Assembly: GCA_051047955.1 (NCBI GenBank)
Contig: JBPGPT010000003.1
Location: forward strand, 558,001 to 622,000
Source of the DNA: Cystobasidiomycetes sp. EMM_F5
Taxonomy: Eukaryota
Length of the DNA stretch: 64,000 nucleotides
Reading direction: 5' to 3'
Made by a program: the position numbers and the translations under genes. The notes below the pieces were generated by a model. It was given only the letters and a program-made list of their open reading frames with translations, was not told the origin of the DNA and made no database searches. Shown piece after piece: positions 3,895 through 14,802 of this stretch (the stretch's first letter is position 1; every line of letters starts with the position of its first letter).

Positions 3895-5164
3895 ATGGCC
3901 GCCGCAATAGTAAATTCAGCTCTTGTTGATTGCCTGATCATAGGCGGAGGTCCAGCAGGACTCAGCACGGCACTCACGCTTGGCCGCCTACACCGCTCCT
4001 GTATCATCTTCGATGACGGGGTCTACCGCAATCAAAAGGCGCACCGGGCTCACGGTGTTCTGACTCGCGACCATGTCCCACCATCCGAAATCCGCAAGCT
4101 AGGAAGGGAGGACATCAAGCGATACGATAACACCAAATTCGTTGAAGCTCGCGTAGAGCACGTCAAAAGGCCCGACGTTACTGGCGGCACTTTCACCATC
4201 ACGGACGACAAAGGTAATAAGTACAAGGGCAGGACAGTAGTGCTGGCGACCGGAGCAGCGGATCAGCTTCCTGACATACCTGGCTACGCGGAGAACTGGG
4301 GAAGCAGCATCTACCAGGTAAGCCGCGTTCCTTGAAATCGTCGATGCTACTCACGGTCTGACGATTGTATGCAGTGTCCTATTTGCGATGGTCACGAGCG
4401 AGCTCATCAGCCAGCTGGCGTCTTGGCGTATCCTTCTGTCACTCCCCTGGTATTCAAAATGTCAACCATGCTACACAACCTCTCCAAGCCACCTGGCAGT
4501 GGGACCGAGGAACTCGATCCGAAAGCTGAACCCGATAGCAAGATTACATTATTCACCAATGGTCCAGTGGATGAATCGGACGAGCAGATGGCCAAAGGCT
4601 TGGAGACGTGTAGAGCACACGGGATGTAGGTTGTCCCGCAAATGCCCGTCAAAATTCTTTTAGCTGACACATTCTCAAACATAAAGCACGATCAATCAGC
4701 AGCCAGTCGTCCGATTTGCTCAAGTCGGTAACGGCGAGGGTGTTACTGTGCACCTTAGAGACGGCACTTCGGTGCAACTGGGTTACATATTCCACAAACC
4801 GTCTTTGGCTCTGACAATACCGAACATTATACGAGACTTGGGGCTCAAGACTGCCGAGGCACCGTTCGGTACAATCATAGTCTCGTCTCCGCCTTTTACT
4901 GCCATCGCAGAAGTTTCAGGCGTATATGTGGCTGGGGATAATTCAGTCATGATGGCGTCTGTTACGTCTGCCTTGCTGTCGGGAAATATAGCAGGGGCAG
5001 GGGTAGCACATTACTGCAACGAACTGGACGACCAGAAAGCTCTAGCGAGATGGAAGGGTAGAGCAGCTTCGAGTCAGGATACCGTGGACCTTGATCCCAA
5101 GTTACCGGACGACACTGGCTGTATCACAGCAGTGCAAGCGCCGGCAGTCGCAGCGCAGGCATGA
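3895..5164 (+). CDS. FAD-dependent thioredoxin-reductase-like (GliT/TrxB class II) oxidoreductase
   Basis: IIGGGPAGLS FAD motif, VVLATG, CPICDGHE redox CxxC right after the intron at 4318, VYVAGD second FAD motif; 2 introns. Confidence 0.9.
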
Positions 5165-12008: not shown

Positions 12009-14802
12009 TCAACGTGACTTGCGGCTCGACTCCGCTCGCGGCACTTTGCGGTTTCTATTCCTGTTCTTGACATTGGCATGAGTATAGAACGACTCGGCCT
12101 TCTTCTTGTTGGTCTTCATTCGAGGCTCTTTGACGCCGCGATGACGCGTTTTGCCATACTCCGCGTCGTTGTCGTCGTCTGTAACTTTGCCACCGGTGGC
12201 CCCAGGCTGCTTGGCGGAGACAGTTGTGTACGATTCTCCCATCAATTCCTCCCAGCCTAATTCTGCATCTGCTTCAGCTGCATCTACCTCGCGCTCGTCG
12301 TCGTTGGCGGCTGTATCGATTGCGTCTTCATCCGCTTCACCGGAGTCGACATCTTCCGACTCTTCATCGAGGTCATTTTCGATGAGTTGCGGTGAGCTGG
12401 CGCCAATACCAGTCCATTCTTGACCATCATCACCATTGTCTTGGTCTTCTTCAACAAACTTTGTCCGATTGACAATCTGGTGTAGGGGCTGCACTACGCC
12501 TGCTATCCTGCCTTCGCCAAACATTTTGTCTTCAGCAGTTTTGGTAGACGTCTCCATCTCGGCATTGCCGGTCGCAGCAGCAGCTTGTCCTGACAGTGAC
12601 ACGGAGTTGTGTTCGAGATCCGGCGGCCTGACGAAGTAGGGTATCCGTCCGCGAATCCAATCATTAAGTACCATCTTCGCCACCGTGTCAATATTGGCTT
12701 CACCGCCCTTGCCTAATTTTCCACGCTTGACGGCAAGCTGAGTAAGAAAATCTTCTGCATCTGTCCAGCTGTCCACACCGTAAGTACGCTTAACGTACTC
12801 CGGCCTGACACGGGACAAGAGTGTGGGTATCGAATCTCCTGGTGCAGAAAGGTGCTCTACCCGGACCACACCCTTCAGGATCTTTTGCGTCTCCGTATCT
12901 CTCGACGAGGGAGGTACAATTCCTGGGCAATCGATGAGATATATCCTCCGCATCAACGTGATGTACTGCCAGACTTTGGTCTCGCCCGGTATCGGTGCAA
13001 CGTTGCAGACTTTCTTGTTCTTGATGGTATTGATGATACTGCTCTTGCCAACGTTGGGATAGCCAACGAAGCCGACCGAAATCTGCTTCTTATCTGACAT
13101 AAGGTTGGAGAATTGACGGAGAAGTTGAATGAGAGAGCCTTTGCCGAAAGAGTTGTTGATGGAAGCGTGGAAAGCGATGGTGGGATGACTTTTAGACAGG
13201 TGTTGAACCCAGCGTGCCTGATGGTAAGCACATACCACAAAACGGATACATTAGCTCACATCGTCTTCAGCGAGAAAGAAAGAAAACAGAAAGGATCAAA
13301 GGAAAGGATTTGCGCTTCCTAACTAAGAAGACCAGAATTCCTCGCTCGAAAGAACGAAGCGTGGGCAATCTCTGACCTCGCTTCCCGTATGTGACCATAC
13401 GGGAAAGTGACAAGGACAAAGACTTGTTTTTATGCCCGTACTGGCGTTCAACTCTTTTAAAGCTGTTTTTACCAGAATTCCCGCAAGATTCGACATAATC
13501 GAATAGTGCAGAAAACATCTAGAGAAATCTCCCATGCTTGTAACGGTCGGATCCGCAACTGATAAGCTGTCACAAGGACAATGCAGCTGACCTGACTTAA
13601 GTCATGGTGTGAAGAGGGATGTAGAGAGGTGGTAGCAGACACGGACAGGACGTGAAACTATCATTTGAAATCTCGCATTTTCGTTCGTTTGAGAGGGGAA
13701 GGAATGAAGGAGGGGCGATGGTACATGGCATCAAACACAGAACAAGCGACTTACAGCTGCCCATCCCGGTATCAAATCGACCTTGTTGAGTATATAAATG
13801 ACCTTTTTCGACTTCTTTTCCTTGGCGAGATAATTTTCGACGGAATGACATCTTGTGCCGATGGGATCTCTAGCATCGAGAACATGCAGTATGATATCGG
13901 ACGAATCTATGACCTTGTATAGTTCGCCCCATATGCGGCGAGAAGTACCGGCTTGAAGGATATAGTCGAGCGGCACATTGGAAAGTTGAGCGTCCGCTGC
14001 TACCCCTCTCTGTGCGTCGTCCAGCTCATCCGCACCAAGATCGTGATCGTGATTCTCGTCCAAGACATCCTCTCCTTGTTCCTCGCCGTCGGCGGTAGGT
14101 ACGTCTGCCGAGGCTGCTTCACCACGTAAGCGCTTCGCAGGAGGGGCTTGGCTGGCTTTCGCAAGTTCCTCAAAAGTGCCTGCTTCTACGCGAGGTCGTT
14201 TACGCTGTGCCCTTGGGCCAAAAGTATCACCAAATGGCTCTGCTGTGGCAAGTTTCGACCGCGAAATCTGCAGACAAAGTGATGAGGAGGGCAAGGATAT
14301 TACTCAAGCTTGAAAGGCACATACCTTGGAGGACTCTTGCAACAGGCTCATTGGCAGCTTGTTTTGCTTTAGAATGACGGAGAATGGGTCTGCCTGCTTT
14401 GCCGCAAGCGAGTCGCGAAAGTGGGTCATTGCGTCTTGCGAGATGACGCGAGTATTGCCTGAGAGTAGTGTAGATGCGTAGGTGGAGGACGTAGGACTGA
14501 ATCAGCCATCAAAAGACCGGGCTGCATCGTACCCTGCTTTGCTCACCGAACCACCTGCGATCTGCCTGGACTCGGCCTATCGGGGCGTCTTTGCTCTGAA
14601 ACTCTGCAGCCTGTATAATCTTGCCGTCCCTGTCTCGAATAGCCTTGCCCCCGCTCGACAGCATCTTGAGATGCTTGATCTTTTTCGCATCTTGACGATA
14701 GAAATTTTCGCCCTTGACATGCTGCTTGGTCTGCGAGTGGGCAGAGCTGCGGCTCTTGCTGCCACTTCCCCCGCTACCACCACTGCTACCCTTAACTGCC
14801 AT
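12009..14802 (-). CDS. NOG2: Nucleolar/nuclear GTPase Nog2 (pre-60S biogenesis)
   Basis: [67 protein letters not shown]; includes a 537-nt intron at 13218-13754. Confidence 0.97.
13306..13610 (-). ncRNA. snR191: Intronic box H/ACA snoRNA, putative snR191/U19 (SNORA74) orthologue
   Basis: Hairpin 1: lower stem CCATGACTT/AAGCATGG and upper stem GGTC/GACC flank pocket AGTCA (13593-13597) ... GTTAC (13540-13544). The 3' hairpin has pocket AGAGT (13451-13455) ... TAGTTA (13320-13325). Both pockets are complementary to LSU rRNA H69 GUAACUAUGACUCU, and each sits 14 nt before an ANA-type box. Yeast snR191 is also hosted in a NOG2 intron. Confidence 0.85.

Follow-up and report, generated by a model that had tools for sequence, protein, structure and literature searches.

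We analyzed a 64,000-nt stretch of contig JBPGPT010000003.1 (positions 558,001 to 622,000, forward strand; hereafter "the window", to which all coordinates refer unless another locus is named), focusing on a gene for a NOG2/NGP1-type GTPase and on the small nucleolar RNA (snoRNA) predicted in its third intron. Open reading frames (ORFs) and Pfam matches place a four-exon gene of this type on the minus strand at 12009..14802, with NGP1NT found in the pieces corresponding to exons 1 and 3 and MMR_HSR1 in exon 4. When used as a database query, exon 4 retrieved 6,408 homologues; wherever these carry a name, it is that of nucleolar GTP-binding protein 2 or a NOG2-type GTPase. The host gene had been called NOG2 in a preliminary description made from the sequence, and both the domains and the homologues agree with that identity. 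The nearest named homologues come from a Cyphobasidiales metagenome-assembled genome (66%), Cystobasidium minutum (63%) and Mixia osmundae (58%), all of which are Pucciniomycotina, indicating that the window derives from a Pucciniomycotina basidiomycete, in keeping with the basidiomycete source named earlier. The features of the gene are as follows:

14547..14802, minus strand: NOG2 exon 1, from the ATG (ORF; NGP1NT, E = 4.2e-11; the related contig L002 is contiguous across 14546/14459)
14546..14459, minus strand: intron 1, 88 nt (GT/AG borders and frame read by hand; L002 contiguous across it)
14324..14458, minus strand: NOG2 exon 2 (frame and GT/AG borders; blastn matches to the related contigs L001 and L002 cover 14459..14332)
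14323..14268, minus strand: intron 2, 56 nt (read by hand from the sequence and the ORFs)
13755..14267, minus strand: NOG2 exon 3 (ORF; NGP1NT, E = 3.1e-07; its end aligns with the exon ends of relatives)
13218..13754, minus strand: intron 3, 537 nt, the proposed snoRNA host (GTAAGT at 13754, CAG ending at 13218, phase 0)
13250..13254, minus strand: likely branch site CUAAU of intron 3 (direct reading, set against the branch-site consensus)
12012..13217, minus strand: NOG2 exon 4, coding part, with the stop codon just below 12012 (ORF; MMR_HSR1, E = 2.4e-16; homologues)

Removal of intron 3 joins the protein segments ...IPGWAA and ARWVQHLSK..., and L001, a related contig without introns, runs uninterrupted across 13755/13217 in blastn. 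The other two introns of the same gene measure 88 and 56 nt, so that intron 3, with 537 nt, deserves its earlier description as oversized, although intron 1 lies outside the range of ~50–75 nt given at the same time for most introns. The database's entry for the protein of this window itself (P0001; 363 amino acids, 100% identical, query coverage 90%) begins at Met40 of exon 4; the current gene model (12012-13100, minus strand) appears to be broken at the long intron, with the NGP1NT half of NOG2 cut off.

Comparison with related sequences indicates that intron 3 very probably encodes the orthologue of snR191 of yeast and U19 of vertebrates, i.e., a box H/ACA snoRNA predicted to act as a dual guide. 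For this comparison, we used 80 related loci, which are metagenome contigs matched by the conserved start of NOG2 exon 4, and two covariance models made with the window left out, namely R1 for the 5′ hairpin (MAFFT alignment of 31 distinct relatives) and R2 for the 3′ hairpin (33 distinct relatives). The predicted RNA contains the following elements:

13306..13611, minus strand: predicted mature H/ACA snoRNA of ~306 nt, with putative ends (span of the R1 and R2 matches; fold z-score; constrained fold)
13532..13607, minus strand: 5′ hairpin, HP1, with lower stem CCAUG-CUU/AAG-CAUGG, a pocket and upper stem GGUC/GACC (Rfam snR191 alignment; R1; constrained fold)
13593..13597, minus strand: HP1 5′ pocket arm AGUCA (GTCA invariant in 31/31 relatives)
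13540..13544, minus strand: HP1 3′ pocket arm GUUAC (GTTAC invariant in 31/31 relatives)
13525..13530, minus strand: H box AGAUUU (aligned with the H box of Rfam snR191 and of R1; 14 nt past the upper stem)
13478..13514, minus strand: middle stem-loop without a pocket, intron positions 241-277 (folds; cmscan alignment to the internal hairpin of Rfam snR191)
13314..13463, minus strand: 3′ hairpin, HP2, with lower stem GCUUU/GAAGC, a pocket, upper stem GAA..CCAG/CUGG..UUC and a branched apex of ~105 nt (R2; constrained fold)
13451..13455, minus strand: HP2 5′ pocket arm AGAGU (GAGT invariant in 33/33 relatives)
13320..13325, minus strand: HP2 3′ pocket arm UAGUUA (T.GT invariant in 33/33 relatives)
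13309..13311, minus strand: 3′ box AAA where ACA is expected (aligned to the ACA of R2)

On the gene strand, AGUCA, GUUAC, AGAUUU, AGAGU and UAGUUA start at intron positions (p) 158, 211, 225, 300 and 430, respectively, where the window coordinate equals 13755−p, and each has a single occurrence. The elements follow the hairpin-hinge-hairpin-tail layout with a pocket in each guide hairpin, and the hinge holds an extra plain stem-loop. The distance from the upper stem to the box is 14 nt in HP1 (p 211-224, up to AGAUUU) and 14–15 nt in HP2 (p 429/430-443, up to the A-N-A box AAA). According to the available text of PMC7075261, H/ACA RNAs follow an ANA rule, have a weakly conserved last A in the H box and keep a spacing of 15 ± 1. 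The bipartite pockets (AGTCA...GTTAC and AGAGT...TAGTTA) and the canonical 14-nt distance of the preliminary description were thus both recovered, the latter as 14–15 nt in the second hairpin, but that description had passed over the noncanonical 3′ box, AAA rather than ACA (13311..13309). The 306-nt stretch has a fold z-score of −5.92, with none of 100 shuffles equally stable. A canonical fold in which the imposed stems consist of standard pairs only is feasible at −102.6 kcal/mol, compared with −110.2 kcal/mol for the unconstrained fold.

The pocket arms are exact complements (5 + 5 and 6 + 5 pairs) of the two overlapping strings of helix 69 of the large-subunit (LSU) rRNA that the preliminary description had given. 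The two pockets are also mutually consistent, in that the unpaired dinucleotide implied by each is spelled in the arm of the other. Shuffling the intron 200,000 times yielded the first pair of pocket arms 6,092 times, the second 2,164 times and both together 99 times; when a box at the right distance was required, the counts were 237 for the first pair and 93 for the second.

Next, we examined the exon junction that intron 3 interrupts in the 80 related loci, which fall into the following classes:

35/80 loci: long GT-AG intron (249–932 nt) at the same exon junction
4/80 loci: short GT-AG intron (55–66 nt) at the same exon junction
27/80 loci: contiguous at the junction (spliced or intronless)
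11/80 loci: cut off upstream of the junction
3/80 loci: junction not cleanly scorable

Intron 3 therefore shares its junction with 35 long and 4 short introns, and the long introns of the relatives carry the same two hairpins, so that the linkage to the host gene, which the preliminary description had put forward, extends to these loci together with the pockets. The 31 aligned 5′ hairpins all share GTCA, GTTAC, the CCA/TGG ends of the stem and the H-box A-N-A, and RNAalifold returns the pocket hairpin as consensus, in which 7 of 10 pairs show compensatory changes. Among the 33 aligned 3′ hairpins, GAGT.G and T.GT are invariant and 8 of 9 upper-stem pairs show compensatory changes; RNAalifold does not call the lower stem of HP2 from the MAFFT alignment, owing to a one-position shift of its register from one sequence to another, yet this stem is seen in most single-sequence folds.

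Searched against the 64-kb window, R1 and R2 gave one match each, both on the minus strand: R1 at 13611..13520 (29.9 bits, E = 1.6e-4) and R2 at 13468..13303 (26.6 bits, E = 0.012, with an 87-nt apical insertion), both E-values being rough owing to a shortened calibration. Models made from the NOG2 introns of other organisms thus match only these two hairpins, which upholds the snR191/U19-type identity. Each model matches 39 of the 80 loci, always on the gene strand and just upstream of exon 4, and most of these matches are training sequences that match by construction; beyond the training set and its exact duplicates, R1 matches L006 and L060, and R2 matches L041. R1 matches all 35 long introns and R2 matches 31 of them (not L006, L011, L046 and L075). 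In L002, the closest of the genomic relatives (84% and 90% amino-acid identity across the adjoining pieces of exon), the intron measures 299 nt and both pockets recur; its H box is AGAUUG, it lacks a middle stem-loop, and its 3′ box is a regular ACA.

An Rfam scan of 13100..13900 by E-value (801 nt, 4,227 families) returned snR191 as the best family (20 bits, E = 0.033), with a good alignment over the 5′ hairpin, both of its pocket arms, the H box and the middle stem-loop. This alignment stops at an internal ACA (13466..13464) because the 3′ hairpin is skipped. The other weak matches look like chance: that of SNORA16 (E = 1.7) overlaps the snR191 match, those of mir-2300 (E = 0.45) and mir-3204 (E = 4.5) coincide with the perfect hairpin at the apex of HP2, and that of drum (E = 9.2) lies on the opposite strand. 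U19/SNORA74 is not listed, which does not imply its absence, as clan overlaps are reduced to the best match. At gathering scores, 3 of 20 related loci gave full-length snR191 matches (L076, 69.5 bits; L054, 66.4 bits; L033, 62.5 bits), each beginning with the 5′ hairpin and extending through the 3′ hairpin to the ACA behind it, and all three are included in the training sets of R1 and R2. The other 17 lie below the snR191 cut-off, like the window, which indicates that this cut-off is a curated detection threshold and not a biological property. In the covariance-model check proposed in the preliminary description, snR191 is thus the best family for the intron, at a score below its cut-off.

The public contigs that we used come from three runs of one study, the library type of which is a guess only, and no sequencing run on record as RNA contains the intron sequence. 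A contig of run X1 equals 13438..13589 with 0 differences and therefore bridges the internal ACA. Two related contigs retain the arms of HP2 around a shorter apex, the first with 13312..13339 and 13434..13463 (36 letters instead of 94) and the second with 13313..13335 and 13447..13464 (41 letters instead of 111); these fit a conserved pocket with a free apex and are no proof of expression. The exons have no contig cover except short, unlike pieces in run X2, and the contigs of two related sequences break off at 13312/13313, in one case next to an Illumina adapter. With a single study of uncertain library type, we used neither the lack of exon cover as evidence on expression nor these ends as evidence for a 3′ end. 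The apex of the 3′ hairpin in the window (13367-13424, minus strand) is a near-perfect hairpin with a 10-bp core, CCCGUAUG.../...CAUACGGG; because it is swapped for a shorter sequence in the related public contigs, it looks like a lineage-specific expansion.

Several observations weigh against the assignment of the intron to snR191/U19. Rfam at gathering scores finds no match in the whole 64-kb window, the 20 bits of snR191 compare with a cut-off of 46, and the E-value of R2 is modest. The helix-69 strings stem from the preliminary description, not from the organism's own rRNA, and the unconstrained minimum-free-energy fold lacks the canonical pockets. The H box AGAUUU keeps the A-N-A of ANANNA but has U instead of A at its last position (H boxes among the relatives vary, e.g., AGAUUG and AGAACG), and the 3′ box AAA, which keeps the A-N-A form, is absent from all 33 aligned relatives (ACA in 30, AUA in 3). 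Furthermore, the four short introns (L004, L007, L022 and L040; 55–66 nt) have no match to R1 or R2 within the available sequence of these loci, showing that the link between NOG2 and the snoRNA is not universal; therefore, a NOG2 intron can persist after its snoRNA is lost, or the snoRNA has relocated. If the lack of a gathering-level match meant that the resemblance arose by chance in a long intron from which no RNA is made, then R1 and R2 would not be expected to match independently, once each in the 128 kb searched (64 kb, both strands). The low shuffle counts and a position that matches the RNA-bearing introns of 35 of the 80 related loci make such a coincidence scarcely credible.

Two further readings accept that an RNA is encoded but question its form. 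In cmscan, snR191 and SNORA16 align no further than the internal ACA (13466..13464), as they would for a short two-hairpin H/ACA RNA of ~150 nt (13609..13461) that ends there and lacks the long 3′ hairpin. However, the second hairpin of such an RNA would be a plain stem-loop without an internal loop, R2 puts the homologous 3′ hairpin downstream, the relatives above the Rfam cut-off have the model's ACA after the 3′ hairpin, and the identical public contig extends 26 nt beyond the internal ACA, so we regard the short form as highly improbable. A partly decayed orthologue, in which the change from ACA to AAA and the ~90-nt apical expansion would weaken Cbf5 binding or 3′-end protection and leave the RNA unstable or only its 5′ pocket at work, is unlikely in our view. 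In its favor are the lack of AAA in any of the 33 aligned relatives, the loss of the RNA from this intron in four related loci, and the scores of the window, which at 29.9 and 26.6 bits fall below any listed full-model related locus (at least 35.8 for R1 and at least 33.4 for R2), with the cut-off match L041 (31.6 bits) as the sole related locus near this range. Nevertheless, the predicted RNA retains its two pockets, its two lower stems and the proper spacing to each box, and the occurrence of AUA in 3 of the 33 relatives shows that the middle base varies in the family, with the two adenines being the Cbf5 contacts stated in the accessible part of PMC7075261. L002 also scores low and yet has the canonical ACA, so low scores reflect lineage distance from the training set.

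We therefore favor an intact snR191/U19-type guide RNA, which would arise within the NOG2 pre-mRNA and be set free by splicing, debranching and exonucleolytic trimming, with its ends presumably set by the bound proteins of the Cbf5/dyskerin complex. A box H/ACA snoRNA of this kind would accumulate as a stable RNA in association with Cbf5, Nhp2, Nop10 and Gar1. In the resulting ribonucleoprotein, the AGUCA/GUUAC and AGAGU/UAGUUA pockets would pair with the two overlapping strings of helix 69, each leaving one unpaired U-N dinucleotide 14–15 nt from an A-N-A box, so that two neighboring uridines, equivalent to yeast Psi2258 and Psi2260, would be isomerized.

Variation among the relatives extends to other parts of the RNA. 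The hinge of 26 of 29 distinct relatives carries 1–3 extra hairpins with GUUUUG or GUCUUG loops (the loci include L012, L014, L016, L023-L026, L033 and L039). This loop type is also present in the Rfam snR191 consensus, whereas the loop at 13514-13478 of the window differs and L002 has no spacer; these hinge hairpins are not known to have a function. The four loci with an R1 match only (L006, L011, L046 and L075) have a clear 5′ hairpin and a second hairpin without a helix-69 model match at E ≤0.01, and these second hairpins may represent the lineage-specific target change that Canzler et al. predicted for Pezizomycotina. Outside the intron, L076 has a tRNA gene match at 4481-4592 on the minus strand of the locus (42.4 bits), ~1.5 kb downstream of its NOG2 exon-4 start, and because the match spans 112 nt, this gene is probably intron-containing.

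The preliminary description implied that the link to the host gene was new, but its conservation across fungi, including basidiomycetes, has already been published. As far as the accessible text of Lim et al. (2021, PMC8476143) goes, none of the eight intron-poor fungi examined, Ustilago, Pseudozyma, Malassezia and Meira among them, has lost the NOG2 intron position, which is retained in 72% of fungal species; the conserved intron encodes the box H/ACA snoRNA snR191; and coordinated expression of the NOG2 protein and the guide is proposed. The legend of Fig. 7 of the same paper covers H/ACA snoRNAs of four basidiomycetes (Ustilago, Pseudozyma, Malassezia and Meira), and a supplement row places S. 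pombe snR191 inside nog2. The central point, that a pre-60S GTPase is co-expressed with a guide for the same subunit, is therefore not new. The available portions of PMC8476143 and PMC7075261 bear out what the preliminary description had said of known systems, i.e., that S. cerevisiae snR191 lies in a NOG2 intron and guides Psi2258/2260 and that U19 guides the equivalent sites. In the portion of Canzler et al. (2018, PMC5824354) at hand, snR191 is the fungal family HACA_42, conservation of its first-hairpin target covers at least Dikarya, the second-hairpin target of yeast is predicted only in Saccharomycotina and Taphrina, and Rhodotorula minuta, from the Pucciniomycotina group to which the window belongs, seemingly lacks ~86% of H/ACA families. 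The phenotype of an snR191 deletion in yeast has been described, according to the accessible part of a 2024 preprint (10.1101/2024.02.02.578723).

Against this background, we consider the divergent snR191-type RNA of ~306 nt predicted in the conserved NOG2 intron of this yeast-like basidiomycete a real, correct but ordinary find, which provides the genome with one more guide RNA, so far unannotated, and accounts for one NOG2 intron being 6–10 times longer than its neighbors. It goes modestly beyond the literature consulted in having AAA as its 3′ box and a 3′ hairpin with a branched expansion, in keeping the second helix-69 pocket within a Pucciniomycotina lineage, and in the failure of the curated Rfam model both here and on most related loci. 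Since neither this RNA nor 17 of 20 related loci are recovered by Rfam snR191 at its curated score, homology-based claims that most H/ACA snoRNAs are lost in some basidiomycetes deserve re-checking with lineage-aware models. We lean slightly toward a broader reading, in which the RNA would be fully active despite the AAA box and the branched 3′ hairpin of ~150 nt and would represent a dual-guide snR191 in a Cystobasidiomycete-like lineage. If so, the near-total H/ACA "loss" in such Pucciniomycotina would be, at least for this family, a detection failure, and the second helix-69 guide would be ancestral in Dikarya and not special to Saccharomycotina and Taphrina, as target prediction had suggested.

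Among known systems, S. cerevisiae snR191 (RF01263, clan CL00043) is likewise a box H/ACA RNA in a NOG2 intron at the same exon junction, and snR191 or its Rfam model shares the 5′ pocket arms GUCA/GUUAC, an AGAU-type H box and an internal plain hairpin; as far as the available descriptions go, it is also a dual guide for two helix-69 uridines, and the pockets of the window are complementary to both strings. In contrast to snR191, the RNA of the window scores 20 bits, has a ~90-nt branched insertion in the 3′ hairpin and a 3′ box AAA, and lacks in the loop of its middle hairpin the GUYUU-type motif of the Rfam consensus and of 26 of 29 relatives. The host of vertebrate U19 is a noncoding gene and not a NOG2 orthologue. 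Even so, U19/SNORA74 is one H/ACA RNA with two stem-loops for the two equivalent uridines, and the consulted part of PMC7075261 has both U19 (human Psi3741 and Psi3743) and snR191 (Psi2258/2260) using two separate stem-loops. The other fungal NOG2-intron snoRNAs, as partly seen in PMC8476143 and as HACA_42 in PMC5824354, have the same host gene, intron position and two pockets, and the RNA of the window differs from them in its origin from a Pucciniomycotina lineage near Cystobasidium/Cyphobasidiales. Finally, the 3′ stem-loop of Haloferax volcanii sR-h45 guides the homologous helix-69 uridine pair; in the excerpts available, it makes both pseudouridines with a single pocket that leaves UNUN unpaired, whereas the predicted RNA of the window would use two pockets with one UN each.

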